A model generated the notes under the pieces. That model ran no database searches, had not been told where the DNA came from, and saw only the letters and a program-made list of their open reading frames with translations. DNA of 64,000 nucleotides, from NCBI GenBank assembly GCA_002472275.1, contig DKRQ01000019.1, forward strand, positions 140,279-204,278. Reading direction: 5' to 3'. Source of the DNA: Bacillales bacterium UBA7278. GTDB taxonomy: Bacteria; Bacillota_I; Bacilli_A; RFN20; CAG-826. The translations under genes were made by a program, and so were the position numbers. Positions 8,061 through 58,930 of this stretch are shown piece by piece (the stretch's first letter is position 1; each line of letters starts with the position of its first letter).

Positions 8061-8230
8061 GGGTTATCCCCTTTATTAATCGAGGGCACAAGCGGCCCTT
8101 TGTTAGCCCCATTATAAACTTATCGATGTCAAAAAAACTTGAAAGTGGCGTGAATCACACGTGATTGATCATGAATGGTGTTTTGCTTTTTTGGTTCTTC
8201 TTTTAAGAAAGCTCCCGAAAAGCCTACACT

Positions 8231-43279: not shown

Positions 43280-43611
43280 GGGTGTTCCTCCTGCCTGATA
43301 TTTAGCACGCTTTTGAAAAAAAACAAGAAAATGGGCGTGAATCACATGTGAATGGGGAAAAGCAGACAAGATGCCCGGTCGATTGCGAGCCAAAAGTTTA
43401 ATCCATATCGTCCCTAGACAAACTTCCGGCCGCCTTACCAACTTCAATCGACGGTTCGCCTTAAGGATTGTCTTTTTAACTATTTATAAGGTTTTAGATA
43501 GTTTTACAGACACTACGGGTGTGAAGCCCCATAATCTAACCGACAAAAATGTAGAATTCTACAAAAAAAGAGATTAGAAAACCCTTACGACTCTCTTTTG
43601 ACTTGTGTGGG

Positions 43612-44490: not shown

Positions 44491-45449
44491 TTCCTCCACG
44501 TCAAAACGGATGATTGCAGATAAATGGACACTAGTAGCGATAACCCCATCGCTAGAAGCATCGACGCTCCCGCGAGGGGATAGGTTAGGTTCATGAGGAA
44601 GAAGATGAGGACGATGAGGAACGGGGGCAAGAAGCGGTAGAGGCCCTTTTCCAGTAGGAAACGGTAGAAGACGCCCCACCTGGAGGAACCGCTTGTTATG
44701 AGCTGCCTCTTTTTCCTTTGGTCGTCTTTTAGGAAGACGAGCCCCACGGCGATGGGGGCGAGGAGGCACACGAGCACCCCGGCCGCAAAGCGGGGCCATG
44801 ATTCTTGGGCCGCTTTTTCGATTTCGACGTTTTTGAGGCGGATATTGCCCTCGATCTGCATGGGGCCGAAGGTGCCAAATTTCTTGGAGAAGCTAACGTA
44901 TCTAGGCTTCACGGAGCGGAGATATTCCTCCATATGCGCGTTGTGCCCGAGCAAGACGATGCCGTAATGCTCATGCTCAAAACCCTTCATCGCGGGGAGT
45001 TCCCCGACGATTTTGAAGGTTCCGTCGTCTTTGTCGTTGGTGAGTAAGGTGTCGCCAACTTTGAGTCTTCTCATCCCCATGACGTTTTTACTCACCATGG
45101 CTTCGCCCGGATTAAGCGAATTCATCGCGGAGACGTAGAAGGGCAACACCTCGGTATAGGTGAATCCAGGGAGCACCATGAGGATATCGGAGGAAAGAGA
45201 GTATTTGCCCGTCTTAACGATGCTTACTCCTGCAAAGTCCGCGAAGGCGTCTTTCTTCTCACCCGTAGAGGGATTTTCATAAGGCAAATCGGCGTAGACC
45301 TTCTCCTGGAATTCGCATTTGCGGAGGACGCTATATTGGTTAAGCGAAGCCGAAACGGGGCCAAAGGAATAAAGACAGAAAACCAATACCCCGAGCATGA
45401 TCAAAAGGGAGGGAAGGTAATCGTGGATGAACTTCCGGAAGAAGAGCAT
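44487..45449 (-). CDS. MacB/FtsX-type ABC permease-like membrane protein
   Basis: N-terminal TM helix, ~190-aa extracytoplasmic domain (GEAMVSKNVMGMRRLKVGDTLL as in MacB periplasmic domains), three C-terminal TM helices. Confidence 0.55.
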   Translation of the reverse strand: MLFFRKFIHDYLPSLLIMLGVLVFCLYSFGPVSASLNQYSVLRKCEFQEKVYADLPYENPSTGEKKDAFADFAGVSIVKTGKYSLSSDILMVLPGFTYTEVLPFYVSAMNSLNPGEAMVSKNVMGMRRLKVGDTLLTNDKDDGTFKIVGELPAMKGFEHEHYGIVLLGHNAHMEEYLRSVKPRYVSFSKKFGTFGPMQIEGNIRLKNVEIEKAAQESWPRFAAGVLVCLLAPIAVGLVFLKDDQRKKRQLITSGSSRWGVFYRFLLEKGLYRFLPPFLIVLIFFLMNLTYPLAGASMLLAMGLSLLVSIYLQSSVLTWRK

Positions 45450-46687
45450 TATTCCTCCGGTTTTTCGACGTTGAGGGGTTCTTCGGCAGGGATTTCCTGG
45501 GTCTCGGGGGCTAACTCGCGCCTACCATAGACGAGGTTACTATAGACCATGCCGATGGGGAGCGCGATCGCCAGTGCGGCGAGGACGGGCAGGCTATAGA
45601 TCAGGAGCGAATCCACGAAGATATGGCCGCGGATCGCGGAGTAGATAAGCGTGCCTCCAAGGGAGACCACAAGGGCCGCTCCGACGGCGATCAAATCGAA
45701 AATAATGATGGTTTTGCGGAGAATTTCTTTGGTTTTGCCGTTTGTTTTCTCGGCTTCATCGCGGTTACGGCCAAGGAAATCAAAGGCGATTAAGCCGCCC
45801 GCTAGTCCTAACGGAACGAGGATGGAGAAGAGCATCGTGAGCTGGAAGCCACGGTCTTTGCGGGTGGATACGGTGTCCTCGGCGCCTTGCATGTAAACGG
45901 CCTTGGCTTGCACCGCGTTGACGAAATCCTGCTTAAGCCAATTGGTCTTCATGGCTTCGTAGCCAGCCTGCAGTTTGGCTTCCCATTCTTCGTCGGTGTA
46001 TTCACCGGGTTGGCGTTGCGCGTCCCATCCCGCTTTATATTCCTCATAGGTCATGAGCTGGCCCATCGGCTTATAGCCTTCCAGCATCTGGGTGCATTTG
46101 GTGATATCCTTCGCGGCGATGAAGGCCAATTCGTAGGTCTTGGGTCCTTTGCCTTCGCCCCAAGACGCCGCCATCGCGGGGGTAAATTTGGCCATGGCGA
46201 TGCCGGTGGCCATCGTCTGGTAGTTGACCGCGGAATAGATGACGGAGACGGGCAAGGTGAATTTGGAGGCGCCTAAGGTGAAGGAAACCTGCGTGCCAAC
46301 TTGGGCCCCGATTTTCTGGGCGGCCACTTCATCTAGCATCAGGCCATTTTCCTTGTAGTCGCCCTTAACGACGCGCTTAGGGTTGAAGAAGGAGATGTCA
46401 TAGTCCGCCATTTGGTCGGAGAGGAGCAGGTGGATTTTGGCTGATGTGCCAGCCGCCACGGAGATTTCGTAATGATAGGTGGGGAAAAGCCCGCTGACCG
46501 CTTCCGTATTGGCCTTAAAGGTCGTCAGCTGGTCGTTAGAAGGCTGAGTGATGATGTAATCGAAGGTCGACTTGGTGAAAGTGGAGGTCGCTTGATCGAT
46601 GGCGATATTCGTCTCGACCGACATGGCTCCACCGACAAGAAGCAAAGCACCTGCGACGATGCCGAGTGCGATTTTGGCAAGTTTCAT
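45449..46687 (-). CDS. MacB/FtsX-type ABC permease-like membrane protein (second copy)
   Basis: Same topology: TM1, ~270-aa external domain, three C-terminal TM helices. One-base overlap with the next gene. Confidence 0.5.
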   Translation of the reverse strand: MKLAKIALGIVAGALLLVGGAMSVETNIAIDQATSTFTKSTFDYIITQPSNDQLTTFKANTEAVSGLFPTYHYEISVAAGTSAKIHLLLSDQMADYDISFFNPKRVVKGDYKENGLMLDEVAAQKIGAQVGTQVSFTLGASKFTLPVSVIYSAVNYQTMATGIAMAKFTPAMAASWGEGKGPKTYELAFIAAKDITKCTQMLEGYKPMGQLMTYEEYKAGWDAQRQPGEYTDEEWEAKLQAGYEAMKTNWLKQDFVNAVQAKAVYMQGAEDTVSTRKDRGFQLTMLFSILVPLGLAGGLIAFDFLGRNRDEAEKTNGKTKEILRKTIIIFDLIAVGAALVVSLGGTLIYSAIRGHIFVDSLLIYSLPVLAALAIALPIGMVYSNLVYGRRELAPETQEIPAEEPLNVEKPEE

Positions 46688-46702
46688 ATCTATTCCCCCC
46701 GA

Positions 46703-47608
46703 TTAGATGGTCACTAGGACGGCGTTGGAATTCCCAGAATCCGTGAAGCCCGCCTTTTTGGAGCAAGCGGAAACGGTCACGGAATAGGGGCCGCCGTAGT
46801 AGTTGCGTTTTTCAAATTCTAGGGTGGAAATGGAGCACTCGTCATCCACGAGGGTTCCTTCTTCGGGGACGAACTGATATTCGGTGCCGTCGAGGTTCTT
46901 CATGGGAGCGCCGTCGATGTTGACTTTGTAGTAATCGGCGCCTTTGACGTGCTTCCAAGCGAGTTTGTTCTCGAAGCTGACCGTGGGCTTGAGGATGTTG
47001 TATTTGTCGACGATCATCGGGATGGTGCATCCGGAAGCGCCCGAGCCGATGACCTCGACTCCGGATTGGTCTTCGGGATAGAAATTCATCTTCATCGTGG
47101 ACTGACCGACGACGGAGGGAGTGATTTTGAAGACGATGCGTTGGGATTCCGTGACATCCGGTTCCGCGGGCACGCGGAAAGCCTGCTCGATCTTGTTCAT
47201 CTGCTTATTGGTGACGGGGTCGCGGTAGGGAATTGGGGTGCCGTCGGTGCCAGAGTCGGACTTCATCAAGAAGGCATCGAAGATCGTGATGGCCTCGAAT
47301 TCGAGAGCGGCTTTCAAAAGGAGATGGCCGCTGGTTTCGGCGCGGGAATAGTAGTCGAACTCGTAGACCAAATAGTATTGGTCAGCGATGCAAAGGCTCG
47401 CCAAATCGGCGTATTTGCTGTAATCGACAACTTCGTTAGGCTTTCCGGTGGAGACGATGAAACCGCGTTTGATCTTAGTCACGTTGACGGTGGTGGTCAG
47501 CTCGATGGAACGGGTGCCGGTGGAGAGTCCGCCGATATGGCTAGATTCACCTCCACAGGAGGCGAGACAGGCGACGATGGCCGGAATCAGAATGAGTTTC
47601 TTCTTCAT
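46703..47608 (-). CDS. Lipoprotein with a C-terminal FN3/Ig-like module
   Basis: Lipobox ACLASCGG. PTVSFENKLAWKHVKGADYYKVNIDGA resembles the repeats of the upstream 621-aa protein. Confidence 0.55.
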   Translation of the reverse strand: MKKKLILIPAIVACLASCGGESSHIGGLSTGTRSIELTTTVNVTKIKRGFIVSTGKPNEVVDYSKYADLASLCIADQYYLVYEFDYYSRAETSGHLLLKAALEFEAITIFDAFLMKSDSGTDGTPIPYRDPVTNKQMNKIEQAFRVPAEPDVTESQRIVFKITPSVVGQSTMKMNFYPEDQSGVEVIGSGASGCTIPMIVDKYNILKPTVSFENKLAWKHVKGADYYKVNIDGAPMKNLDGTEYQFVPEEGTLVDDECSISTLEFEKRNYYGGPYSVTVSACSKKAGFTDSGNSNAVLVTI

Positions 47609-47620
47609 AAAGATTGCTCC

Positions 47621-49486
47621 TTAGTAGTCTAACCCTAGGGTTTCGTAGGTCCTTTCGAAGACTTTGATGGTGGATTCGGGGTCGGTTGAATAAGTGACCT
47701 CTTCGATCGTGAATTCGATGCGATTCGCTTCACGGAAGGTTAGCGGGCGTAGGCCTGGAGTAACCCCATCGCGATAAACTGTCCAGTCGGCGTAGGTTTG
47801 TGTATTCACGTGATCGGAGTAAATCCATTTGACCTCGACCTTGGCGTTGATGTTCCTGTTCACGCCAGGAATGGAGTGATGGAGGACAAAATGGGCGAGT
47901 TTTTGGCCGCTTTCCTTGTCAATTGAGGTGCTCGGTTCATCCCAAGAAATGTTCGGAATGAGGAAGGTGACACGGTTAGAATCCGCGGAACGGAGAATGT
48001 CGTTGCCATTGCCGAGGTTGACGGTCCTCACCGCGTATTGGCCCGCGGCGAATCCATTGAGAGTAGTCTCGGAAAGATCCGTCAAATCCGTCCTCTTTTG
48101 GTCGTTAATGTAAATCGTGAAAGAAGAAGGATCGGCATTATCGAACGTGAAACTCTTGCCATCAAAGGAGATGGTGGGAGCACCGAGTTTGGTGAGTGTT
48201 ACCTCGTTGGAGAACTCCGAGGAAATCTGATTGGTGTTGCCAACGGCCTTGGCGGTAACCTTGTGGGCACCGACCGCGGTGATACCGTTAAGATTGGCGT
48301 CCCATTCGGCTCCGTCTAGATAGTATTGGACCGAATTCTCGCTGCTGACGTTGCTCGCATGGAGGACTCCTTCGGAAATGGAGATGAGGGGGCTATCGAG
48401 TTTGGTCAAAACCAAAGGCGCGGACATCGCGGAATCGATTTCTCCCGCGTTTCTCGCCGCGTTTTTGGCGGTGATGCTGTAGCTGCCGACTTCGGTGATG
48501 GTCTTCACGTCGCCGGTGAACTCAACGCCATCGCGATACCATATGAGGTTTTCGCCATCCGCGGCGGTGAGCGCTCCATTGACCAAGGAAAGCTTGGGAG
48601 TGGGCATCCTGCGGATTTCGGCTTCCACGGGGGTGGCGTAATCGACTTCGGCGTTAGGCCCAATGGTGCGGATGGAAATGTTATAGACGCCAGGGTTAGT
48701 GGTGTCGAAGGCGATTTCGGGTGCGGTCGGGGAGAATGTGGAGCCGTTGATGCGGACATCATATCCAGAAGCATCGGTCGCGGCGGTCCATTTGAATTTG
48801 CCGTCGGTGGCGTCGTAATGGATGTCGGAGACGCCCGGCATCTTCCTTAGTTTCACCGCGGCGGATTCGTCGCTGGGGGAGTAGGCGGAGACGCCGTTGC
48901 TGCCCTTTTTGTCGCTTCCCGCGATGACGTAGGTCTCGAATTGGCTGAAGAAGGCGATCGAGTTGAAATCGTAGGTGGTGGTTTCGGTGTTGTAGTTGGT
49001 GATGGCCGCCTTGGTCTCGGGGTTGCGGAGATAAACGGTGTAGAAAGTGGCATTCTCGATGGGCTCCCAGTTCAAAACGCCGGTAGTGAAGTTGAATTTG
49101 GGGGCAGGGGTGAGGAGTTTTTTCGGGGAAGTGGTGACCTTGATGACCTTTTTGAAGTTCAAATAAGTCAAGGTGACCTCTTGGGTGCCGACGTAAAGCG
49201 GGTCATAACCCGTCACGGTGAACTTGTCGCCGGAAATCCATTGTCCGACGGAATCGAAGGCGTTGCCGACGTGAATTTTGGCGTTGGATAAATCCAAGGT
49301 GCCGCCATAGACGATGGGGTATTCTTCCTGGAGTTCTTTGACTTCGGTGACCACGTTGGTTCCCATGTTGATAAGAACGGGGGCGGTGGCGCCACCGGCG
49401 ACGCCCAAAGCAACGAGGGCGACGCTGCCGATCATGATGGATTGGGCCAGTTTGAGCCTGGCCACTGCGCGAAGCATGTGTGCCAT
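47621..49486 (-). CDS. Membrane-anchored surface protein with multiple FN3/Ig-like repeats
   Basis: N-terminal TM anchor (IMIGSVALVALGVAGG). Repeats such as PAPKFNFTTGVLNWEPIENATFYTVYL and VSDIHYDATDGKFKWTAATDASGYDVRI. Confidence 0.55.
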   Translation of the reverse strand: MAHMLRAVARLKLAQSIMIGSVALVALGVAGGATAPVLINMGTNVVTEVKELQEEYPIVYGGTLDLSNAKIHVGNAFDSVGQWISGDKFTVTGYDPLYVGTQEVTLTYLNFKKVIKVTTSPKKLLTPAPKFNFTTGVLNWEPIENATFYTVYLRNPETKAAITNYNTETTTYDFNSIAFFSQFETYVIAGSDKKGSNGVSAYSPSDESAAVKLRKMPGVSDIHYDATDGKFKWTAATDASGYDVRINGSTFSPTAPEIAFDTTNPGVYNISIRTIGPNAEVDYATPVEAEIRRMPTPKLSLVNGALTAADGENLIWYRDGVEFTGDVKTITEVGSYSITAKNAARNAGEIDSAMSAPLVLTKLDSPLISISEGVLHASNVSSENSVQYYLDGAEWDANLNGITAVGAHKVTAKAVGNTNQISSEFSNEVTLTKLGAPTISFDGKSFTFDNADPSSFTIYINDQKRTDLTDLSETTLNGFAAGQYAVRTVNLGNGNDILRSADSNRVTFLIPNISWDEPSTSIDKESGQKLAHFVLHHSIPGVNRNINAKVEVKWIYSDHVNTQTYADWTVYRDGVTPGLRPLTFREANRIEFTIEEVTYSTDPESTIKVFERTYETLGLDY

Positions 49487-50319
49487 TATTTCTGACTCCT
49501 TTCCAGGCGTTTGCTAAAGCCCTTATAGGCTTTGTTGAGAACCTTGATGTGCTTGCGTTTCCTGCGGCTGAAGATGAGGGTCTTCAGGGGATAGACGCTC
49601 GTGACGAAATCCTCGTCGTTGAGGGTGTCGTTGATGAAGGCGACGTAGAACTTCAATTGTTCATCGGTCTTCGCGGTCTTCATGAGGAATTCGGCAAATT
49701 CATAGAAGGCCACTTCGTCATAGTTGCCGAACTTGTCGGAAAGGGATTGCTTGATCTTCGAAACGGAAAGCAAGGTGGTTAGGTCGCCGCCTTTTCCGGA
49801 AACGGAGAAATAGTTCTGATAAAGCTGGCCCCAGAAATGGGGATTGATGGCGTCGCATTCCTTGATGTCCGCCACGATTTGGGCAACGGTGTCGAAGTCG
49901 CCGAAAAGCGAACGGCAGAAGACGACGCGGAGGACGACCTCGGCCAAGCGGTTCCAGGTTTTGCCTTTGTTCGGATATGCGCCGAGTTCACCGGCAAGAC
50001 CTTGAATCTCGATCTTGATGGTGCTCGCGGATTGCTGATCGATGGATTGGATTTCGGCTTCCAGGTTGACCGGGAATGCCTTATTGAGTTCGTTGGCGGC
50101 CTCTAATAGATCTTGATCGGTGCCGGCATTTTTGACGGCCTTATGGATGGCTTTCCATTGGTCCTCACTAGGCAAAACGATGAGGGAACTTTCGTCCTCA
50201 CCTTGGCTTAGCACAATGCTTCCGCAGAACTTGCACTTATAGCGGCCGAGCGACTCTTTGACCAAGCCAGAGCTCTCGCCGCAATGGGGGCATTTGAGCG
50301 CCTGAAGTTCGATTGCCAT
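49486..50319 (-). CDS. Cytoplasmic zinc-ribbon protein, first gene of the divergent operon
   Basis: RBS aggagg before ATG 50319. MAIELQALKCPHCGESSGLVKESLGRYKCKFCGS (CxxC-x15-CxxC). The rest is helical with no recognised domain. Confidence 0.5.
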   Translation of the reverse strand: MAIELQALKCPHCGESSGLVKESLGRYKCKFCGSIVLSQGEDESSLIVLPSEDQWKAIHKAVKNAGTDQDLLEAANELNKAFPVNLEAEIQSIDQQSASTIKIEIQGLAGELGAYPNKGKTWNRLAEVVLRVVFCRSLFGDFDTVAQIVADIKECDAINPHFWGQLYQNYFSVSGKGGDLTTLLSVSKIKQSLSDKFGNYDEVAFYEFAEFLMKTAKTDEQLKFYVAFINDTLNDEDFVTSVYPLKTLIFSRRKRKHIKVLNKAYKGFSKRLERSQK

Positions 50320-50552
50320 GCTCTTCCTCCTTGGGTAGTGGCAGGGGGAGTGAGTGCTCAAAACACTATTTTCCCCCGTTCCTATGGAACATCTTATTAC
50401 ACGAGACTCTTTTATTCTATAAAAAAATACCCAGTTCCAATTCGAATGCGGAAACCATACATTTTTGCAAAGATTTTTCACATTTTTGAGGTGTGAGGAA
50501 TCTCACAAAAACCCTGCAAAAACCCCATATTTTTTGGAACTAAAACCCATAA

Positions 50553-50591: not shown

Positions 50592-50640
50592 GATGCCCAA
50601 AGGGCAGGAAACGAAAAAATCTCGATATATGGAAACCGCA

Positions 50641-50649
50641 TGTTATAAT
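50641..50649 (+). promoter_or_regulatory. Extended -10 promoter element (TGtTATAAT) for the ESCRT-III/Vps4-like operon
   Basis: TG-n-TATAAT lies 48 nt upstream of ATG 50697. RBS aaggggga at 50681-50688. Confidence 0.6.
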
Positions 50650-50696: not shown

Positions 50697-51644
50697 ATGT
50701 CACTATTCACTGATAAGGTCGACTTAGGGATGGCGGATTCCCGCGAACACTTGATTGAGAAGTATGTTTTCGACGTCAAGAAAGGAACCATCCAAATCCA
50801 CGTCAAACCCGGCTATGAAGCCATCATCAACGGCTACGACAAAATCGGGCCGAACCAAACCAACACCTACAACAAGAAGACGATCGGCACCACGCTCACT
50901 GCTTTCGTCTACCAGAAGGGCAGCATCGCCAAGCCGATCATCGTTCCCTTCTTCGCCGGTCAGCACACCATTTCGCTAGACGCCCATAAGACCGCCAAGG
51001 CCACGTTCGCCCTTGTCGGCACGGCCAAGATCGAGATCGATGACTACAAGGCGCTTGCTCGTTATTTCGACAGCACCGTGACCTATGCCGATGTCGAGAA
51101 AGAACTCCACGAGAACTTCAAGGACGCGTTCTCAATCCACATGACCGCAGCCGCGAAAACCTATATCTCTTCTTCCTCCACCGATGTCTCGATCCACTCG
51201 GATCTCAAAAACATCGCCAAGGCCGGTATCCAGGGCTCTTCCCTCCAGAACACCCTCATCGACATGGGCATGTCCCTTATGTCTTCCGGCATCAGCCTGA
51301 GGCTCAACCCGGTCGGCAACTCCGAGGAGATCATCGCCGCCATCAACGCCAAATTCAACGAAGCCGCCTTCGATGAATTCGACGAGGCCAAAGCCGATAA
51401 GCAGCGTCAAAGGGAAATCGAAGACAAGAAGTTGGACTACCAGCACGAAATCGACGTCATCAACGCTCAGAACACCGATACCCAGAACCGCAACAACAGC
51501 TATGCCTACTCGGGCAATGTCCCAAAGTATCCTCACGGCGCTCCCGCCGCCCCCGATACCGGCAAGAGGTTCTGCTCGCATTGCGGCAGGGAACTCGCCC
51601 CCCGCGACGAATATTGCCCGTCCTGTGGCACCAAGACCCGCTAA
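50697..51644 (+). CDS. SPFH/band-7-like (YdjI-type) protein with a C-terminal zinc ribbon
   Basis: MSLFTDK N-terminus. Beta-rich then helical SPFH-like layout. Coiled segment KADKQRQREIEDKKLDYQHEID. C-terminal CSHCG-x9-CPSCG. Internal acidic AAFDEFDE motif. Confidence 0.45.
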   Translation: MSLFTDKVDLGMADSREHLIEKYVFDVKKGTIQIHVKPGYEAIINGYDKIGPNQTNTYNKKTIGTTLTAFVYQKGSIAKPIIVPFFAGQHTISLDAHKTAKATFALVGTAKIEIDDYKALARYFDSTVTYADVEKELHENFKDAFSIHMTAAAKTYISSSSTDVSIHSDLKNIAKAGIQGSSLQNTLIDMGMSLMSSGISLRLNPVGNSEEIIAAINAKFNEAAFDEFDEAKADKQRQREIEDKKLDYQHEIDVINAQNTDTQNRNNSYAYSGNVPKYPHGAPAAPDTGKRFCSHCGRELAPRDEYCPSCGTKTR

Positions 51645-51669
51645 TCACCACCGATAAGGAGAATCAACA

Positions 51670-52635
51670 ATGGGACTTTTCAAAAGCAAAGAGCAGAAGG
51701 CCGCTGAGGCCGCTGCAAAGCAGAGGCAGCAGCAGCAAGCCGCCATCAACAAGGGTCTACAAGACAGCATGACCCCGAAAGACGATGTTACCCCCTACGC
51801 CAACGAAAAAAAGCGCAGGCAGGAAGAGCAAGCCGCGGCCCAGCACCAAGAAGCCAACCGCGACGAGATCGACGAAATCCTCAGGAACCTCTCCAGGGAA
51901 ATCTCGCTGAGCTTCCCCGACGCCGAAGACGACGCCCAGGAAATCCGCGACCTTTCCGTCAGGGTCAGGAGGATGAACCTTGGCAAGAACCAAGGTGCCA
52001 CCGACGCCATCATGACCTTCATCCGCGCCAAAGCGCAGGACATGATCGTCAAGGCCCACGCCGGCAACTACGCCGCCATCATCGGCTTCTTCGAAGAGCT
52101 TAGGAGCCTCATTAACGACGCGGAGAATCCACAAAAGGCCAAACTTATGGCCGATCCCGCCTACGTCAAGCGTCGTATCCGCGTCGCCGAGCTTTCCGCC
52201 CTCAAGGAAGACCTCCAAGGCCAGAAACAGGCTTTGTATCGCCAACGCGACAAACTCAAATCCAGGATGGAAGCCGGCCTCATTGACCAACGTGAAGCCG
52301 TCTCCAGGGTCGGCGACATCCGCGCTCAAGTCGAAGACTTGGAACGTTCCCTCCAGAACGCCCAGAGCGATTTGAGGGATGCCCAGACCGTCCTCACCGA
52401 GCAGGAGACCCAGATCCGCAACTCCGCGAAAGCCAAGGCCGAGGACATCAACGACTACACCGCGATCGCCGACCAGAAGGCCGACGCCGAGGCGCTTTCC
52501 TCCGAGAAAAACGACGTCATGTCGCAGATCCGTCAGAACAGCACCGATGTTTCGATGGATGACATGCATATGCATGCCAGCACCGGCAAGACCGAACTCA
52601 GCCAAGAACAGGTCGACAACGCCTTCGACTTCTAA
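51670..52635 (+). CDS. Long coiled-coil protein, possible PspA/ESCRT-III-superfamily member or adaptor
   Basis: MGLFKSKEQK N-terminus. Heptad-rich helices over 321 aa. C-terminal acidic peptide ELSQEQVDNAFDF. Confidence 0.35.
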   Translation: MGLFKSKEQKAAEAAAKQRQQQQAAINKGLQDSMTPKDDVTPYANEKKRRQEEQAAAQHQEANRDEIDEILRNLSREISLSFPDAEDDAQEIRDLSVRVRRMNLGKNQGATDAIMTFIRAKAQDMIVKAHAGNYAAIIGFFEELRSLINDAENPQKAKLMADPAYVKRRIRVAELSALKEDLQGQKQALYRQRDKLKSRMEAGLIDQREAVSRVGDIRAQVEDLERSLQNAQSDLRDAQTVLTEQETQIRNSAKAKAEDINDYTAIADQKADAEALSSEKNDVMSQIRQNSTDVSMDDMHMHASTGKTELSQEQVDNAFDF

Positions 52636-52649
52636 GGAGAGAGACGAAC

Positions 52650-53228
52650 ATGTTTGGTAAGAAACCCGCTCAGATGCCTAACCGCACCGACATCAACCTC
52701 AAGTTTTCGTCGAGCCTGCGCCAGTTGAAGCGCTCCATCGACCAGCTCGACCAAAAGATCGAGGCCGAAGTGGCCGCCGCGATTTCCTATAGGAAATCCG
52801 GCAACATCGACGAGGAACATCGTTCCCTCGCCAAGATCCAACGCTACCTCGCCCAGAAGATCCAAAAGGAACGTTTCTATGACAGCGTCGAAGGCGTCAA
52901 AGCCAAAATCGACGATATCCTCGACAAAGTCGAGGTTTCCCGCAACCTCTCCGAGACCTTGGGCAGCATCGGCCAACTCGTCGATTCCAAGGAACTCAAA
53001 TCCATCGTCGGCGAACTCGACACGTTCAACAAGAACTTCGCCAAGACCAACAACATGATGGACGCCTTCATGGGCTCGATGGACGCAACCGTCGGCGAAA
53101 TGAGCGTCGATCCTAGCCTCACCGCCTCCGTTCAGGCGATGGTCGGCGAAAGAATGAAGGGGTACGAGACTCGCATTGAGGAGCAGGCCGAGGCCGACCT
53201 CGATGAGAGCGCGTTCAATTTTCAATAA
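52650..53228 (+). CDS. ESCRT-III (Snf7/CHMP)-like protein 1
   Basis: 192 aa. MFGKKP N-terminus. Basic alpha1-alpha2 hairpin (LRQLKRSIDQLDQKIEAEVAAAISYRKSGNIDEEHRSLAKIQRYLAQKIQ). LSETLGSIGQLV...IVGELDTFNKNF...MMDAFMGSMD parallels CHMP alpha3-alpha5. Acidic tail EEQAEADLDESAFNFQ. Confidence 0.6.
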   Translation: MFGKKPAQMPNRTDINLKFSSSLRQLKRSIDQLDQKIEAEVAAAISYRKSGNIDEEHRSLAKIQRYLAQKIQKERFYDSVEGVKAKIDDILDKVEVSRNLSETLGSIGQLVDSKELKSIVGELDTFNKNFAKTNNMMDAFMGSMDATVGEMSVDPSLTASVQAMVGERMKGYETRIEEQAEADLDESAFNFQ

Positions 53229-54505
53229 TGGAAAGCATCAACTCCGTCAAAAACCGTTTCTTAGCCGAGAAGAAAGAGGCGGAATACCGCCTCACAGTCA
53301 AGGACTACCAAGGGGCCATGCCTCATCTAGAGAAGGCCGCCGAACTCCTTGGCGAGGTTTATCGTCGCGACATTAACGTGCAAAGGCGCGAGCAGTATAA
53401 GCGTATCCGCGAAGAACTTCGCGACAAATACGACGAGTGCAAGCAGGAACTAGGCATGGCGCCTTCCTCCTCTTCCAAGCCCCGTCAGAGCACCCAGCGT
53501 CCCGCTGGCCCCCGTCCCGCCGCTGGCGGTGCCTCCCAAGCCAAGGGCGGCGCGCCCGCAAAAGGCGGCGACCAGAAGGGCAAAGGCAAGCAAGCCGAGG
53601 AAGACGATGGCATCAACTACGTCGTCAACGGCATCGACCTGAAGCAATTCCTCGCTTCCGAATCCCGTGAGAAAGATGTCATGTTCGACGACGTCATCGG
53701 CATGGAGAGGGAGAAGCGCACGGTCAAAGGCGAACTGTTCCTCTCAGAGGAAGAGAAAGCCTACAAAGCCCAAATCGGCCTCAAGAACAAGAACTTCATC
53801 CTCCTCTATGGTCTTCCCGGCACCGGTAAGACCTACTTCGCGATGGCCCTTTCCAATGAGCTCCGCGAATTCTCGGGCGAGGACATCCCGTTCTTCTCCG
53901 TCGTGTGCACGCATTTGAAATCGTCCCACGTCGGCCAAACCGAGAACAACATCATCGCCCTCTTCGAGTTCACGAAGCAGTTCGACCGTTGCGTCCTCTT
54001 CATGGACGAATTCGACGCGATCGGTCAATCCAGACAGAAGAACTCGGGCGACCCGACCGCCGTCACGGTTGTCAACACGTTGCTCACCCAACTCGGTGGC
54101 TTCGATTCCAACCCGAACCTCCTCTTCATCGCCGCGACCAACTGCCCCTATAACCTAGACGGTGCGTTGCTCTCCCGCGCCTCCCCCAAGATCGAGGTGC
54201 CTCTTCCCGGCGCCGAGGTCCTCTATGGGACTCTTAAGAGGAAGTTAGGGGATCTAGTCGCCCCCGACGTCGACCTCTCCGCGGTGGCCAACAGGCTTGC
54301 CAAAAGCAAGTTCTCCAACCGCGACGCCTCCAACCTGATCGACGAAATCAAGAGGAAGCTATTCGAAGCCCATAGGGCGGACGATATGATCGACAAAGTC
54401 GATACCTCGATGATCACCACCGCGCTGAAGGAGGTTAAGTCCTCCGTCAAGCGCGATGAGGAAATCGCCTTGGAGGAATTCAAGGCGCAATTTGCAGAAA
54501 ACTGA
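53228..54505 (+). CDS. Vps4-like MIT-linker-AAA+ ATPase, paralog 1 (degenerate arginine-finger region)
   Basis: Helical N-domain (KDYQGAMPHLEKAAELLGEVY). G/P/K/A-rich linker. Walker A GLPGTGKT, Walker B LFMDEFD, sensor-1 AATNCPYNLD. The SRH region reads LLSRASPKIEV. Confidence 0.6.
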   Translation: MESINSVKNRFLAEKKEAEYRLTVKDYQGAMPHLEKAAELLGEVYRRDINVQRREQYKRIREELRDKYDECKQELGMAPSSSSKPRQSTQRPAGPRPAAGGASQAKGGAPAKGGDQKGKGKQAEEDDGINYVVNGIDLKQFLASESREKDVMFDDVIGMEREKRTVKGELFLSEEEKAYKAQIGLKNKNFILLYGLPGTGKTYFAMALSNELREFSGEDIPFFSVVCTHLKSSHVGQTENNIIALFEFTKQFDRCVLFMDEFDAIGQSRQKNSGDPTAVTVVNTLLTQLGGFDSNPNLLFIAATNCPYNLDGALLSRASPKIEVPLPGAEVLYGTLKRKLGDLVAPDVDLSAVANRLAKSKFSNRDASNLIDEIKRKLFEAHRADDMIDKVDTSMITTALKEVKSSVKRDEEIALEEFKAQFAEN

Positions 54506-54526
54506 TATCAATAAGGAGATATAACC

Positions 54527-55114
54527 ATGAACGACATCAAACGCCGCATGAAGATGATGGAAGAGAAGCAGCAAGCCAAAGACATCATCAAGCAATTCGA
54601 TTCCGTCATCGTCAATTTGGACAATGGCATCGCCAAGTGCCGCGAGAAGGCCAAGGAAGCCTTGGTCAAGCGCAACGACATGGCCGGTTTCAAGATGTTC
54701 GGCCGTTCCATGAAGTACTACCAGAACATGAAGAACTCGATCGAGGCCATCAAGTGCCAGTTCGAGAACTACCTGATCCAAGTCGAGGTCGCCAACACCT
54801 TCGTCGGTTTGAAGGACGTCCTTGGCAAAACCGCCAAGATGATGGACTCCATGCCCTCTTTGCAGAAGAACAACCGCGACTTCATGAAGTTCAAGAAGTC
54901 CATCATGAAAGGCCAGCTCTCCATGGATTCCATCAACTCCATGATGAGCAACCTGGATCCCTCCGCGGATTCCGAACTCACCCCCGCCGAACTCGACAGC
55001 CTCAAGGACGAGATCCTCATGACCTCCGGCGCGAGCCAGACCACGATCGGCGCGACCGAAGGCGACAAGGCCTCCCAGTCCTCGGGCGACTTCTTCTCCG
55101 AACTCGACATCTAA
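54527..55114 (+). CDS. ESCRT-III (Snf7/CHMP)-like protein 2
   Basis: 195 aa. KAKEALVKRNDMAGFKMFGRSMKYYQNMKNSIEAIKCQFEN...GLKDVLGKTAKMMDSM...MKFKKSIMKG...MDSINSMMSNL. Acidic tail GDFFSELDI. Confidence 0.55.
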   Translation: MNDIKRRMKMMEEKQQAKDIIKQFDSVIVNLDNGIAKCREKAKEALVKRNDMAGFKMFGRSMKYYQNMKNSIEAIKCQFENYLIQVEVANTFVGLKDVLGKTAKMMDSMPSLQKNNRDFMKFKKSIMKGQLSMDSINSMMSNLDPSADSELTPAELDSLKDEILMTSGASQTTIGATEGDKASQSSGDFFSELDI

Positions 55115-55123
55115 TCCAAAACC

Positions 55124-56308
55124 ATGGCCTTTGATTACCCGGGGAAAAATAGAGCCTACGAAGCGGCCCTTCAAAGAACGAAGGAATGCCTTTCTAACGG
55201 CGACGTCGAAAACGGCACCCTCTACCTAGACAAAGCGATTACCCTGTCCGCCGAGCTCGCCGCAAACGCGGCGATCCCGGAGTTTCAGGCGCGCTTCAAA
55301 AAGGAGAACGCCCAGCTCCTCAAAATCAAGGGCATGCTCGGCAAGGGCGAGAACCCCTTCCGGAAGAAAGCCACCGTTTCTAACGGAGACGGGGCAAAAG
55401 GAGGGGATGGCAAAGCCCAAAAGCCCGAGGAAGGGGAAAACGTCAGCGGCTTCTTCTCCACGGAGATCCCGACGACCACCCTCGCCGACGTCGCGGGCCT
55501 AGAGGAGGTCAAGGAGCAGATTCGCATCAACGTCTTGCTCCCTCTAAAGGACCCCGAGGTTTTCTATAACTATAAAAAGGACGCAGGTGCGCGAATCATC
55601 ATGTACGGCCCGCCGGGATGTGGCAAAAGCTTCGTCGCCGAAGCGATCGCCGGCGAGCTCAAGTGCCATTACGCGGTCATCACCTCCGACCAAATCCTCG
55701 ACAAGTATGTAGGCGTCGCCTCCAAAAGGATCAAGGCCGTCTTCGACGAAGCCGAGAAATACGACAACGTCCTTCTCTTCTTCGACGAAATCGACGCGCT
55801 TTGCGCTTCCCGCGACTCCGACGATTCCGCTCACACGAAGGACATTTTGACGACCTTCCTCACCTGCATGTCGGGTTTCAAACCCAAAGACAAATCCTTG
55901 AAGGTCATCATCGGCGCGACCAACAGGCCGTGGGCGATCGACTCCGCTTTGGTCCGTGGCCAGCGTTTGGACACCGCGATCTACGTCCGCCTGCCCGACC
56001 GCAAGGCCAGGGAATTCTTCGTGAAGAAGGAGTGGGAGAAGTTCGCCAACATCTACGAAGGCAGCGACCTCACGATGGATTACGCGATCGACGCCCTCGA
56101 TGGGTTCTCCGGCGCGGATATCAAGACGATCCTCGACCAAGCAAAGACCAAGACATTGACCCGTGTTTTGCAGGACAATTTGCCAAAAGGGCAATATTAC
56201 AAGGTGTCCAAGGCGGATTTCGACTCCGCTTTGGCGGCCCACCATAACCCCGTCACCGCCGAAATGCTACTTAGATACGAAGCCTTCGGGAAAGGAATGA
56301 CCGAATGA
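55124..56308 (+). CDS. Vps4-like MIT-linker-AAA+ ATPase, paralog 2
   Basis: Helical N-domain (LSNGDVENGTLYLDKAITLSAELA). G/K-rich linker. Walker A GPPGCGKS, pore loop KYVG, Walker B LLFFDEID, sensor-1 GATNRPWAID (compare Vps4 GATNIPWQLD). Confidence 0.65.
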   Translation: MAFDYPGKNRAYEAALQRTKECLSNGDVENGTLYLDKAITLSAELAANAAIPEFQARFKKENAQLLKIKGMLGKGENPFRKKATVSNGDGAKGGDGKAQKPEEGENVSGFFSTEIPTTTLADVAGLEEVKEQIRINVLLPLKDPEVFYNYKKDAGARIIMYGPPGCGKSFVAEAIAGELKCHYAVITSDQILDKYVGVASKRIKAVFDEAEKYDNVLLFFDEIDALCASRDSDDSAHTKDILTTFLTCMSGFKPKDKSLKVIIGATNRPWAIDSALVRGQRLDTAIYVRLPDRKAREFFVKKEWEKFANIYEGSDLTMDYAIDALDGFSGADIKTILDQAKTKTLTRVLQDNLPKGQYYKVSKADFDSALAAHHNPVTAEMLLRYEAFGKGMTE

Positions 56309-57876
56309 TCAACAACGCAGACATCCTCCGCGAAGCCAAAGCCGCGATCGTCCGTGGCGATTACCGCACCGCGACCAAGCACATCGAAAAACTGATGACC
56401 CTTCTCAAGTTCGACTTTGAGAACGGCATCGACCGTGAGAAGAATGGCAGGGCCTTCAACGCCCTGGCCAAAGTCAGGAGGGAACTGATTGCCGGAAGTC
56501 TCAGCGAGTCTTCCTATGCCCTTTTGAAGATCCCTTCCCCGAAGCCGAAATACGAGGCCCCCTCCGCGCCGAAGCCCGCGGCCCCCAAAGAGGATCCCTT
56601 CGCCGGCTATAATCCCGACGCGAAGCCGATCGGCGGAAAACCTGCTCCCGCGCCAAAACCAGAACCCAAGCCGGAGCCCAAGGACGAAGAACCCGAAAAG
56701 CTCTCCCCCGAGGACGCCGCGCTTGCAGCCAAACCCGAAACCCAGTTCCACTGGGATGAGATCCCGACCGTCACCTTTGAGGACATCGCGGGCCTAGACG
56801 AATGCAAAGCCCTCGTCGAAAGGAAGGTTTTGCTTCCCTTGCTCCACCCCGAGATGCTAGAAGGCTACGTCGCCGGCGGCGGCGGAGGCGTTTGCCTCTA
56901 TGGCCCTCCGGGCACCGGCAAAACCATGATCTCCGCGGCCATCGCCAACAGGATCAACGCTAAATTCTGCTCCATCACCCCCTCCGATTTGCTTCAGCAG
57001 GGGTTAGGCAACACCGAGAAGGCCGTCAAAGCCCTCTTTGCGGAAGCCCGTTCCTATCCCTGCGCGGTCATCTATTTCGACGAAATGGACTCAATCGCCC
57101 CGAAGAACACCAAATCGACCGCGGCCAGGCAACTTCGTTCCGAGTTCCTCGCCCAACTTCAAGGCGTTTCTAGCTATGGCAAGAAGAGCAAGAACATCCT
57201 CTTCCTCATCTGCGCGACCAACAAACCATGGGATATCGATTCCGCCTTCTTACGTCCGGGCCGTTTCGGCACGAAGATCTACGTCGGCTTGCCCGATGAC
57301 GCGGCGAGGCGTTACATCATCACCCACCGTTTGGACAAGATCAAATCCAAGCGCACCGTCGAGATCAGGCCCGACATCGACATCGACATGATCGTCGAGA
57401 AGACGAACGGCTTCAACTGCGCCGACGTCTCGAACTTCCTCAATTCCGTCGAGGAGGTATCCCTTGTCCGTGCGATGAAGACCGGCGAGAAATACATCGC
57501 CAACCACGACTTTGTCCTCGTTCTTAAGAAAGCCGTCTCCTCCGTCCAGGCCGACGACATCATCAAACTCGATGCCTGGCGTAAGGAAAACGATGCGCCG
57601 ATTAGCTTCGATGACGACGAACTTGCCGGCAAACCCAAGGAAGAACCGGCCCCGACCGAACCCGCGGCACCCGCTCCTGAGCCAGCGCCTGCCCCTGCAC
57701 CCGCTCCGGCATCCGAGCCCGCCCCCGAACCTGCACCAGCACCCGAACCGGCCCCGGCACCTGAGCCTGCTCCAAGTGGAGAACCCGCCGCCCCGACGGA
57801 GGGCGATTCCTCATCTTCCGCGTTCGACGATTTCCTCTCCGGAATCGACGATTCGCTACCAAAAGACGGCGAATAA
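56305..57876 (+). CDS. Vps4-like MIT-linker-AAA+ ATPase, paralog 3, with a (PAPE)n tail
   Basis: Helical N-domain (IVRGDYRTATKHIEKLMTLL). P/K/A linker. Walker A GPPGTGKT, Walker B IYFDEMD, CATNKPWDID, canonical FLRPGRFG. C-terminal ~50-aa Pro/Ala/Glu repeat ending SSAFDDFLSGIDD. ATGA overlap with paralog 2. Confidence 0.65.
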   Translation: MINNADILREAKAAIVRGDYRTATKHIEKLMTLLKFDFENGIDREKNGRAFNALAKVRRELIAGSLSESSYALLKIPSPKPKYEAPSAPKPAAPKEDPFAGYNPDAKPIGGKPAPAPKPEPKPEPKDEEPEKLSPEDAALAAKPETQFHWDEIPTVTFEDIAGLDECKALVERKVLLPLLHPEMLEGYVAGGGGGVCLYGPPGTGKTMISAAIANRINAKFCSITPSDLLQQGLGNTEKAVKALFAEARSYPCAVIYFDEMDSIAPKNTKSTAARQLRSEFLAQLQGVSSYGKKSKNILFLICATNKPWDIDSAFLRPGRFGTKIYVGLPDDAARRYIITHRLDKIKSKRTVEIRPDIDIDMIVEKTNGFNCADVSNFLNSVEEVSLVRAMKTGEKYIANHDFVLVLKKAVSSVQADDIIKLDAWRKENDAPISFDDDELAGKPKEEPAPTEPAAPAPEPAPAPAPAPASEPAPEPAPAPEPAPAPEPAPSGEPAAPTEGDSSSSAFDDFLSGIDDSLPKDGE

Positions 57877-57941
57877 GCGGGAAATCGCCGCAAAACCATT
57901 AGATTTCCTAAATTGCGATACCCAAGAAAGGAGTAGCGATC

Positions 57942-58889
57942 ATGAAAGAAAAACCCGAAATCTGCCCCGTTTGCAAAGGAAGGCTCTTCCTCACCAATCG
58001 CGACGGGACCAAGACCTGCGCGAGCTGCGGTCATACCCTAGGCACCCCATCCGCGCATGGCGGACGTTCCGCTGCCGCCCCCGTCAGGCCCTCTCCCTCC
58101 AAGACGGAGAAGTGTCCTTCCTGTGGCTCCGTGGCCAACTACGTCAGTACCGACGCCGACGGCAAGGAGATCTACGCTTGCTCCTTCTGCGGCTCGAAGT
58201 TCACCCCTAAGCCGCGCGTCGAGGCCAAACCCAAAGAACCAGAACCCGAAAAACCCGCGGCCCCCCTCAAAGACGAGCTAGACGGCAGGGAAATCTTCGC
58301 CCTTGCCAAAGCCAATACGGTCGAGATCTTCTGCCGCAGTGGCTCCGGCGCCTCGGCGGGATCCGGCTTCTTCATCGCCGATAACTTCGTGATGACCAAC
58401 GCCCACGTCGTCTTCGATGACTTCGGCGGGGCAAACCCGACCCCGTCCTCCTACATCGCCGTTTGCTTCAAAGGAGGCAAGCAACATGGCGCGGAAATCC
58501 TCGCGGCCAACCTCGACGAGGACATGGCGATCCTAGCGACTGACCTCTCTTGCTCCGCCATCGCCGAAATCGCGAAGGAGATGCCCGAGACCGGCGAGAC
58601 CATCTACGCGGTCGGCAACTCTGCGGGACAAGGCATGTGCATCATGGAAGGACTCGTGGCCGACCAACTCCGCGAGATCGCCGACAACGACTACATGATG
58701 ATCTCCGCGAACATCGTCGGCGGCAACTCCGGCGGCCCGATCTTCAATAAGCACGGCAAAGTCGTCGGCATCGTCACCCTCGGTTCCAACGAGGCGGTCG
58801 CGATGAACTATGGCATCCCCGTTCCCCGCATCGAGAGATTCATCAAGTCGGTGGAACAAAAAGTCGGCAAGAAATTCGCCCGTAAGTAA
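57942..58889 (+). CDS. Double zinc-ribbon / trypsin-like (S1C, HtrA-type core, no PDZ) serine protease
   Basis: CPVCKG-x12-CASCGH and CPSCGS-x16-CSFCGS. Triad contexts MTNAHVV, DMAILA, GNSGGPIFN. Confidence 0.7.
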   Translation: MKEKPEICPVCKGRLFLTNRDGTKTCASCGHTLGTPSAHGGRSAAAPVRPSPSKTEKCPSCGSVANYVSTDADGKEIYACSFCGSKFTPKPRVEAKPKEPEPEKPAAPLKDELDGREIFALAKANTVEIFCRSGSGASAGSGFFIADNFVMTNAHVVFDDFGGANPTPSSYIAVCFKGGKQHGAEILAANLDEDMAILATDLSCSAIAEIAKEMPETGETIYAVGNSAGQGMCIMEGLVADQLREIADNDYMMISANIVGGNSGGPIFNKHGKVVGIVTLGSNEAVAMNYGIPVPRIERFIKSVEQKVGKKFARK

Positions 58890-58900
58890 ACAAGGAATGA

Positions 58901-58930
58901 ACCGGTAGGGGCTCCCTATCGGTTTTTCTT
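58901..58930 (+). terminator. Rho-independent terminator after the protease gene
   Basis: accggtagg / loop ggctc / cctatcggt, followed by ttttctt. Confidence 0.7.

Follow-up and report, generated by a model that had tools for sequence, protein, structure and literature searches.

An operon of uncultured Bacillota that combines two divergent Snf7-like proteins with three classic AAA ATPases

We analysed a 64,000-nucleotide (nt) stretch of the Bacillales bacterium UBA7278 genome (assembly GCA_002472275.1, contig DKRQ01000019.1, positions 140,279-204,278 of the forward strand), hereafter the window, whose numbering is used throughout for this genome. It contains an eight-gene operon (50697-58889, plus strand) that we consider rather more apt than not to encode a membrane-remodelling polymer of the ESCRT-III type and the AAA ATPases that serve it, the individual steps of the mechanism being proposed by analogy. 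Five genes form the core of the operon: ESCRT-III-like paralog 1 (52650-53228, 192 amino acids (aa)), AAA ATPase 1 (53228-54505, 425 aa), ESCRT-III-like paralog 2 (54527-55114, 195 aa), AAA ATPase 2 (55124-56308, 394 aa) and AAA ATPase 3 (56305-57876, 523 aa). A first-pass annotation made from the letters of the sequence had listed these open reading frames (ORFs), and their order, overlaps and gap are exactly as it gave them. Paralog 1 and ATPase 1 share one nucleotide in the junction TAATG, a 21-nt spacer bearing an AAGGAG ribosome-binding site separates ATPase 1 from paralog 2, a 9-nt gap lies between paralog 2 and ATPase 2, and ATPases 2 and 3 overlap by four nucleotides (ATGA). The five genes were thus correctly described as far as they go, but the real unit comprises eight genes, so that other conserved partners belong to it, and a linked envelope module is found beyond the coordinates of that description. 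Of the related loci examined, the 13 that reach across this part of the cluster all keep the order of subunit followed by ATPase; a fourteenth, L011, is cut inside the second small protein. These loci come from rumen and gut metagenome-assembled genomes (MAGs) labelled Bacilli, Erysipelotrichaceae, Acholeplasmatales, Firmicutes, Clostridia and Ca. Coproplasma, and so cover two classes.

Snf7 (PF03357) was the best Pfam family for both small proteins, matching paralog 1 at E = 5.6e-5 (23.3 bits) and paralog 2 at E = 7.9e-5 (22.8 bits). Both scores fall under the Snf7 gathering cut-off of 27.3 bits, and one could suppose that the resemblance is a coiled-coil or compositional artefact and that the small proteins are unrelated helical proteins; paralog 2, which returned no sequence match in the PDB as a single sequence or as a profile, would suit such a view. 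We consider it very improbable in light of what the family profiles found. The paralog 1 profile was built from bacterial members only, leaving out the CHMP1-like protein P0223, with which CHMP1B is recovered at a circular E = 1e-13. This profile matched yeast Vps24 in the PDB at E = 4.4e-7, with residues 8-185 aligned collinearly and at near full length to residues 16-198, followed by CHMP1B (E = 1e-4), CHMP2A (6e-3) and CHMP1A (0.01). Identity to the eukaryotic ESCRT-III matches was about 13-20%, and the PDB searches became informative with the deeper bacterial profile, the single paralog 1 sequence having yielded just CHMP1B at E = 0.05. We also scored both families against ten ESCRT-III references; look-up confirmed nine of them as identical in sequence to the proteins they are named for, and the tenth as identical to a sequence of the CHMP3 cluster. 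The paralog 1 profile gave 33.0 bits to Vps24, 24.8 to CHMP1B and 23.0 to CHMP2A, against a maximum of 5.9 among 500 composition-matched shuffles of the references, and such collinear, full-length matches far above composition-preserving decoys argue against an artefact. The paralog 2 profile gave 15.4 bits to Vps24 and 9.9 to CHMP3 (decoy maximum 8.1), and 25 of the 27 members of its family match Pfam Snf7 at E ≤ 0.01, the best at 1e-7.

The two families are small, with 26 clusters for paralog 1 and 55 for paralog 2, all from Bacilli, Erysipelotrichaceae and Acholeplasmatales MAGs, a few of them automatically named 'Snf7 family protein'. An exhaustive profile search of 1.84 billion representatives recovered just 24 members of the paralog 1 family and made no link to named archaeal ESCRT-III families. 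The weakest match in that search was a CHMP1-like protein with a tail resembling a type 1 MIT-interacting motif (MIM1), which again speaks against a spurious resemblance.

AlphaFold2 (AF2) models computed from the family alignments are in agreement with the sequence comparisons. Paralog 1 was modelled with a predicted local distance difference test score (pLDDT) of 77.6 and helices at residues 12-50, 53-108, 114-150 and 159-188, and paralog 2 with a pLDDT of 71.7 and helices at 2-48, 52-108, 110-127, 133-143 and 153-167. The long α1-α2 hairpin, the absence of which had been named beforehand as grounds for abandoning the ESCRT-III assignment, is present in both models together with α3-α5. Foldseek placed ESCRT-III structures at the top for both, a result hard to square with unrelated helical proteins: CdvB and CHMP1B led for paralog 1 (probability 0.99-1.0), and CdvB, CHMP1B and CdvB2 for paralog 2, with CHMP2A and CHMP3 also among the leading matches; the CdvB and CdvB2 structures are from S. 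islandicus. The charge polarity of ESCRT-III, a basic first half followed by an acidic second half, is found in both families, whose mean net charge over residues 1-105 is +2.4 for paralog 1 and +8.0 for paralog 2 and over the remainder -6.6 and -6.5, respectively.

The bacterial branch of the superfamily fared differently in the same comparisons. The small proteins had no match to PspA_IM30 (PF04012) at E ≤ 1, PspA and Vipp1 were absent from the PDB profile searches, and PspA stood at rank 13 (E = 0.55) among the Foldseek matches of the paralog 2 model; the match of paralog 2 to TIGR02977 (E = 0.0097) is out of register. Profile and model evidence together place both small proteins, as divergent members, in the Snf7/CHMP/CdvB branch of ESCRT-III rather than with PspA/Vipp1, and the Snf7/CHMP character that the first-pass annotation had attributed to them is borne out by the profile and Foldseek matches. 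Each is followed by an AAA ATPase in conserved order. These results bear on an envelope-stress or repair system, in which the operon would stabilise damaged membrane in the manner of PspA/Vipp1 rather than carry out scission. ESCRT-III and PspA belong to one superfamily and have a repair function in common (PMC8281802, PMC7619361), AAA+ ATPases, band-7 proteins and ABC transporters are known associates of bacterial PspA and Snf7 homologues (PMC11237479), and nothing in the window points specifically to division. This idea departs from the one we favour in its biology and not in its molecular mechanism. With the small proteins on the Snf7/CHMP side, and with no PspF, PspB/C or LiaI/F-type partner in the Pfam and NCBIfam scans, we regard a PspA-like role as unlikely.

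The two paralogs are related to each other, if distantly. A single BLASTP comparison aligned them at 29% identity over 83 residues (E = 7e-5), pairing LSETLGS with LKDVLGK and MMDAFMGSMD with MDSINSMMSNL. The motifs RKSGN (paralog 1, residues 48-52) and KRND (paralog 2, residues 48-51) lie at the predicted hairpin tips, where the AF2 models break the helix at residues 50-53 and 48-52. The shared segment order and the motifs that had been quoted for it are thus present, mutually aligned and, at the tips, structurally placed. Alignment of the two family profiles with hhalign gave E = 6.7e-5 and a probability of 64% (16% with a shallower alignment), in line with the distant similarity first proposed; the sequence similarity between the paralogs is weak yet above chance. 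Of a split between them like that of the eukaryotic A-type and B-type subunits there was no sign. An 'A-type' paralog 1 and a 'B-type' paralog 2 were considered and rejected: both families score best within the Vps24/CHMP3/CHMP1 group, Vps24 and CHMP3 leading for paralog 2, and the B-type references score at or below zero for it. Since both paralogs lean in sequence to the Vps2/Vps24/Did2 group, the split is unsupported.

Each of the three ATPases has one classic AAA domain (PF00004, E ≤ 4e-31 throughout: 4e-31 in ATPase 1, 5e-34 in ATPase 2 and 2e-31 in ATPase 3), and the Walker A and Walker B motifs are kept in all orthologues of all three. A conserved helical N-domain of about 78 aa, a variable low-complexity linker and the AAA domain follow one another in each, a layout collinear with that of verified yeast Vps4 (helical N-domain, linker, AAA domain, C-terminal helix); the eukaryote-type β-domain insertion was not seen in the alignment of the ATPases with yeast Vps4. 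CdvC, CDC48 and PAN were among the top NCBIfam models for all three. ATPase 2 scored 160.6 bits to CdvC and 167.5 to CDC48, ATPase 3 159.9 and 161.2, and FtsH led for ATPase 1 (108 bits). The ranking for ATPases 2 and 3 (CdvC ≈ CDC48 > PAN > FtsH) is compatible with Vps4 but non-discriminating, because authentic yeast and human Vps4 proteins give the same order, and hidden Markov model scores were accordingly rejected as uninformative for deciding between Vps4 and Cdc48. Whole-chain PDB rankings of the ATPases are inflated by two-domain Cdc48 chains. As judged by their sequences, the ATPases cannot yet be filed as Vps4 orthologues.

The three differ in their functional elements. ATPase 1 has a three-helix TPR-like N-domain, a non-aromatic and variable pore loop (H/K/L/T-V/P-G) and a second region of homology (SRH) that reads LLSRA, with a single Arg. 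ATPase 2 has a three-helix N-domain, the canonical K-Y-V-G pore loop (KYVG in 118 of 118 relatives) and the SRH VRGQRL (RGxR). In ATPase 3 a helical N-domain is followed by a Pro/Ala/Lys-rich linker, the pore loop is QGLG (Q-G-L/V/Q-G in the family), the SRH is LRPGRF, and a long Pro/Ala/Glu-rich C-terminal extension ends in …AFDDFLSGIDD, with a weak Vps4_C match (E = 0.033). The set of three AAA ATPases is as first listed, but because only ATPase 2 keeps an aromatic pore loop, they are unlikely to be equivalent in function. Between the N-domains of ATPases 1 and 2, hhalign shows homology (88%, E = 3e-6). Among Bacilli and Clostridia MAGs, the ATPase 2 family counts more than 117 relatives of full length. 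Its N-domain (residues 1-82, 55124-55370) ends in a nearly invariant NPF across 42 diverse relatives.

We next considered how the subunits and ATPases might be connected. The tail motifs of the two small proteins are conserved and particular to each, and so are the N-domains of the ATPases. In 12 of 12 loci the variable linker of paralog 2 leads to an invariant terminal DFFxE(L/I)(D/N), and paralog 1 finishes in an acidic stretch with F-x-L-x, the window copy ending in …SAFNFQ. Similar acidic-aromatic peptides close gene 2 of the operon (…NAFDF) and some ATPase 3 orthologues. At the other end, MFGKK of paralog 1, M(G/S)LFT of gene 1 and MGLF..K of gene 2 resemble the N-termini MGLFGK of CHMP3 and MDLLFGRRK of CHMP2A, both read from verified references. 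This anatomy of tails and N-domains is what would be expected for tail-mediated ATPase recruitment, though the tails are non-canonical as MIMs. The first-pass annotation had gone further and proposed dedicated cognate pairs of subunit and ATPase with a division of labour. In L009 the first pair, subunit and ATPase alike, has either diverged strongly or been displaced while the second pair is conserved, and in L004 paralog 1 and ATPase 1 likewise diverge together with the second pair kept. Among the distance-matrix correlations, those of the cognate pairs rank first (0.81 and 0.76, versus 0.74 and 0.41 for non-cognate combinations). The tails, the translational coupling of paralog 1 with ATPase 1 and the co-displacement are consistent with cognate pairing, which is plausible from these comparisons and for which the coupling, L009 and the top correlations remain suggestive; the margin in the correlations is small, and smaller still once L009 is removed.

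Three further genes complete the operon. Gene 1 (50697-51644, 315 aa) encodes a protein whose conserved N-terminal domain, of unrecognised fold, is followed by a helical stretch rich in charge and, at the C-terminus, by a zinc ribbon (Zn_Ribbon_1, E = 1.3e-6), which is all that Pfam recognises in 11 orthologues; it is always two positions upstream of paralog 1 in the related loci. Its identification as an SPFH/band-7 protein, as in archaeal Meth_adaptin loci, was considered, and the same 11 orthologues gave no Pfam support for it. Gene 2 (51670-52635, 321 aa) encodes a helical, coiled-coil protein that keeps its position across the related loci and has no Pfam family in any of nine orthologues. 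A third ESCRT-III paralog was entertained for gene 2 and dismissed, with an hhalign probability below 1% against both Snf7-like families. The last gene (57942-58889, 315 aa) encodes two N-terminal zinc ribbons (Zn_Ribbon_TF, E = 1.8e-6) and a trypsin-like serine protease (Trypsin_2, E = 1.9e-24) with the His/Asp/Ser motifs TNAHV, DMAIL and GNSGGP. Nine other loci (including L005, L006, L009, L012-L015 and L017) carry a homologue of this protease at one end of the cluster, either closing it or, as in L009 and L012-L015, standing at the front.

Three classic AAA ATPases of the unfoldase type and a trypsin-like protease in a single operon also bring to mind a cytoplasmic unfoldase-protease module for quality control or regulated proteolysis, with the small proteins as adaptors or substrates of the ATPases. 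By NCBIfam, FtsH, PAN and Cdc48 are no less similar to the ATPases than CdvC is, and transmembrane segments are predicted in none of the eight operon proteins, a feature that would suit a cytoplasmic module but that ESCRT-III proteins share. The protease is a separate soluble protein with no obvious element for docking to an AAA ring, and the operon is linked to an envelope module (see below). Above all, such a module leaves unexplained the specific likeness to ESCRT-III, namely the collinear full-length matches to Vps24, CHMP1B and CHMP2A, the charge polarity and the CHMP3-like N-terminus. We therefore give an unfoldase-protease module a low probability, and an ESCRT-III-type polymer with its ATPases remains our preferred account of the operon.

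The operon is bracketed by a promoter-like site at 50622-50649 (plus strand) and a terminator-like hairpin at 58899-58925 (plus strand). The former consists of TCGATA, a 16-nt spacer and TATAAT with a TG extension, matching the consensus at 10 of 12 positions; it rests on consensus only, and such sites are not more numerous in the sequence than expected from shuffling. The hairpin, with a 12-bp stem, six GC pairs and a T-rich tail, is the top match of a terminator scan in the region and starts 10 nt past the stop codon of the protease gene. Base composition of the operon is the same as in the remainder of the window. Minus-strand ORFs of 197-282 aa run antisense to the operon genes (51757-52605, 52632-53225, 54359-55174 and others) without supporting evidence, and are most simply regarded as by-products of the composition of the coding strand, with its strong AT and GC skew.

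Divergent from the operon lies an envelope module of five genes on the minus strand (43612-49486), recognised from Pfam matches, hydropathy, a lipobox and its recurrence in L015. It encodes a transmembrane-anchored Big_3 protein (47621-49486, E = 5.6e-6), a lipoprotein with the lipobox LASC (46703-47608), two proteins whose hydropathy gives one transmembrane segment, a loop and three transmembrane segments (45449-46687 and 44487-45449), and an ABC ATPase (43612-44799, ABC_tran, E = 2.6e-15). In L015 (12703-19726), a distantly related locus, homologues of all five follow the operon immediately downstream and in collinear order, with E-values from 1e-13 to 4e-38. This recurrence, the one ground on which we assign membership, argues for a functional link of the operon to the envelope. 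An FtsX/MacB identity for the two membrane proteins was set aside, as topology alone supports it and no Pfam match was obtained at E ≤ 1.

The related loci speak to both the stability of the core and the fluidity of its surroundings. Wherever a locus is long enough to reveal it, the gene order of the operon is repeated, with the variations given here and above. Identity of paralog 2 is 69-83% across the Bacilli and Acholeplasmatales MAGs, the exception being L010 at 49%, whose ATPase is at about 50%. Some ATPase slots have been refilled: that of ATPase 1 by a SpoVK/CbbX-type AAA protein (AAA_lid_6) in L009 (8803-9960) and L016 (8230-9375), and that of ATPase 3 by a RuvB_N/WHD_RuvB-type AAA+ protein in L013 (10125-11582), L014 (10169-11635) and L015 (11197-12678). 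L008 carries an extra short AAA protein of 296 aa (7991-8881). Large LRR_5 proteins, some with weak or faint TIR_2 matches, flank or interrupt the operon in Clostridia-type and some Bacilli-type loci (L013 6276-8303 and 11619-15784; L014 11648-14368; L015 19897-21197; L017 2094-3758).

A taxonomic distribution that looks patchy, together with variable flanks that include LRR_5 genes with weak TIR_2, AAA_14/DUF4143 and Imm_superinfect, would be familiar from anti-phage or abortive-infection defence, in which the AAA ATPases and the serine protease would sense infection and effect the response, leaving the helical proteins to damage or seal the membrane. A DUF3990 gene pair that recurs nearby could be read in the same way. 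The best PADLOC match of all three ATPases is IetA (108-116 bits), a component of the AAA-protease defence pair IetAS, and the operon protease matches the RT-Protease, LmuA and Avs1b protease domains. These PADLOC matches (IetA, TRIP13 and the trypsin domain) are generic, however: ATPases 2 and 3 are stronger to CdvC and CDC48 (~160 bits), and the PADLOC score of ATPase 1 about equals its own FtsH score (108 bits). The PADLOC matches of the Snf7-like proteins (NsnC at E = 6e-4, and Csn2) are weak and non-specific, and PADLOC-DB 2.0 has no match for gene 1, gene 2 or an RDD-family protein past the operon. No relatives of the family were found in viral contigs, a result on which a phage or plasmid origin was also rejected, and the operon does not differ in composition from the rest of the window. 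Conservation of paralog 2 at the level given above, L010 apart, is more typical of a structural or housekeeping polymer, and the neighbour that recurs is the envelope module of ABC transporter, lipoprotein and immunoglobulin (Ig)-like protein. Defence thus seems to us an improbable function for the operon.

Several neighbouring genes were recorded in the course of this work. The RDD-family membrane protein (58964-60400) combines four hydrophobic segments with a C-terminal tail that is long and very acidic; it was rejected as a member of the system, lying behind the operon terminator and being absent beside the operon in the other loci. Just 3' of the locus are the DUF3990 gene and an overlapping 159-aa gene (60498-61349 and 61346-61825), and L016 has homologues of this pair as well (1-1574; 36% and 31% identity), some 4-5 kb upstream of its operon. 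A 331-aa zinc-ribbon protein (49486-50481, minus strand) is encoded divergently from the operon promoter region and has no homologue adjoining the operon in the other loci. Adjoining the ABC module is a second trypsin-like protein (41732-43447, minus strand), 571 aa long, with the protease domain at residues 364-549 and one transmembrane-like segment.

Returning to an ESCRT-III-type polymer with dedicated ATPases, we propose the following course of events. The two subunits would assemble on the cytoplasmic face of the membrane, probably as a co-polymer, and the CHMP3-like MFGKK N-terminus would help paralog 1 to assemble there. Their acidic-aromatic tails (…F-x-L and …DFFxELD) would dock onto the TPR/MIT-like N-domains of the ATPases, and the tails of the coiled-coil protein and of ATPase 3 are perhaps docking motifs as well. 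ATPase 2 would thread and extract subunits, and so remodel or disassemble the polymer as Vps4/CdvC does, with ATPases 1 and 3 as specialised or regulatory partners, ATPase 1 being coupled to paralog 1. The zinc-ribbon and coiled-coil proteins could act as nucleators or adaptors, and the protease could process or clear components. By analogy, the role is likely to be scission, vesiculation or repair of membrane at the envelope of gut Bacillota with thin walls or none, and the system may work together with the neighbouring module of ABC transporter, lipoprotein and Ig-like surface protein; orders related to the hosts include families predicted to be deficient in peptidoglycan (PMC10868615).

Several observations weigh against this account, beyond the sub-threshold Pfam scores of the two subunits. 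Polymerisation, membrane binding and ATPase-driven disassembly stand by analogy only, the operon being known here from its genes and predicted structures. An aromatic pore loop is found in ATPase 2 and lacking in ATPases 1 and 3. Aligned with verified yeast Vps4, the SRH of all three ATPases differs from the RRRF of Vps4, and that of ATPases 2 and 3 is of the Cdc48/FtsH/PAN type rather than the Vps4 type. The isolated N-domains have no match to Pfam MIT (PF04212) at E ≤ 10, and the profile of the ATPase 1 N-domain matches only TPR repeats in the PDB. Comparison with the verified MIT domains of VPS4A, VPS4B and Vps4 gave an hhalign probability of 12.6%; the score of that alignment was 20.6, and column-shuffled controls scored 10.3±2.0, with a maximum of 14.6. 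The tails of the paralogs fit neither the MIM1 nor the MIM2 consensus. Without L009, the pair-specific margin in the distance correlations narrows to 0.91 and 0.83 versus 0.79 and 0.72. Finally, the flanking genes vary even between close relatives, LRR/TIR-like and AAA_14/DUF4143 genes being frequent among them, a pattern that would also fit an accessory island.

A stronger version of the proposal is that uncultured gut and rumen Bacillota (Bacilli/Acholeplasmatales-like organisms, and Clostridia such as Ca. Coproplasma) own a genuine ESCRT-III/Vps4-type scission machine, with Snf7-type subunits, dedicated ATPases recruited by tails and ATP-driven remodelling, which would serve division, budding or envelope repair in cells with thin walls or none and be coupled to the ABC/surface module. 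We advance this tentatively, judging the odds to lie somewhat against it. If true, it would provide a bacterial model for ESCRT mechanics. Should the system work as set out above, the phyletic range of ESCRT-type machines would widen, with a bearing on whether the Snf7 branch and its coupling to an ATPase are older, or more mobile, than assumed, and a compact, soluble system of eight proteins would be at hand for dissecting how labour is split among subunits and ATPases. It would also point to unrecognised membrane remodelling in abundant uncultured rumen and gut bacteria, some relatives of which are predicted to lack peptidoglycan (PMC10868615).

Among known systems, the archaeal CdvB/CdvC loci and the euryarchaeal 'Main' and 'Meth_adaptin' loci (Makarova et al. 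2024, PMC10936438) resemble the operon in placing several ESCRT-III paralogs next to a classic AAA ATPase that has one AAA domain and a small N-domain made of helices. The two models find their best structural matches in CdvB and CdvB2 of S. islandicus, a shared trait is the lack of the eukaryote-type β-domain insertion, and some archaeal loci also hold coiled-coil and zinc-ribbon accessory proteins (PMC10936438). Unlike these systems, the operon is bacterial (Bacillota) and has three ATPases instead of one, two of which are without an aromatic pore loop; its SRH is of a non-Vps4 type and it includes a trypsin-like protease. CdvA, winged-helix (ESCRT-II-like) and adaptin-like proteins were not detected in it, and neither an MIT domain nor MIMs could be demonstrated in its protein sequences. 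The eukaryotic Vps24/CHMP3, CHMP1B and CHMP2A proteins, which Vps4 recycles, are the best sequence matches of both bacterial families, and the Vps2/Vps24/Did2 group has in common with them a hairpin core, a charge that passes from basic to acidic, and a C-terminal peptide carried by a flexible linker. In contrast to eukaryotic ESCRT-III, no partner of the Snf7/Vps20 group (B-type) is detectable here, nor is a link to ESCRT-I, ESCRT-II or ubiquitin. IetAS likewise encodes an AAA ATPase together with a serine protease, but the match to IetA is at the level of generic AAA proteins (~110 bits, versus ~160 bits to CdvC/CDC48 for ATPases 2 and 3), and IetAS is without ESCRT-III-like components; IetS is moreover subtilisin-like, and the protease of this operon trypsin-like.

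Closer to hand among bacteria, PspA, Vipp1 and LiaH share with the operon the superfamily, the bacterial host, the cytoplasmic face of the membrane and, in some cases, links to AAA+ ATPases and ABC transporters (PMC11237479). They differ in that the proteins of this operon match Snf7 and are partnered by classic single-domain AAA proteins, not by PspF or double-AAA proteins, and none of the Psp/Lia partner domains was found in the operon by Pfam or NCBIfam. Reviews hold that bacteria have only PspA/Vipp1-type relatives of ESCRT-III and no clear Vps4 homologue (PMC7615534, PMC7619361), so that the pairing would be restricted to archaea and eukaryotes. A phage shock protein (PSP) survey reports that divergent Snf7 proteins and Vps4-like ATPases occur sporadically in bacteria, sometimes with ABC ATPases and permeases (PMC11237479, Text S2.2, Table S3). 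Its cases include a Snf7 protein anchored by a signal peptide or transmembrane segment with a fusion of an inactive AAA and an AAA domain (Handelsmanbacteria, myxobacteria), and an MIT+Vps4 protein with a TPR-6TM protein and no Snf7 (Verrucomicrobia and others). None of them consists of soluble paired Snf7 paralogs, each with a single AAA protein, and a third ATPase, zinc-ribbon protein, coiled-coil protein and protease, in Bacillota, and a full-text literature search found no description of this architecture. What seems new here is the occurrence in bacteria of two Snf7-type paralogs beside three classic AAA ATPases of Vps4 layout, in an order that is kept across two classes of Bacillota.

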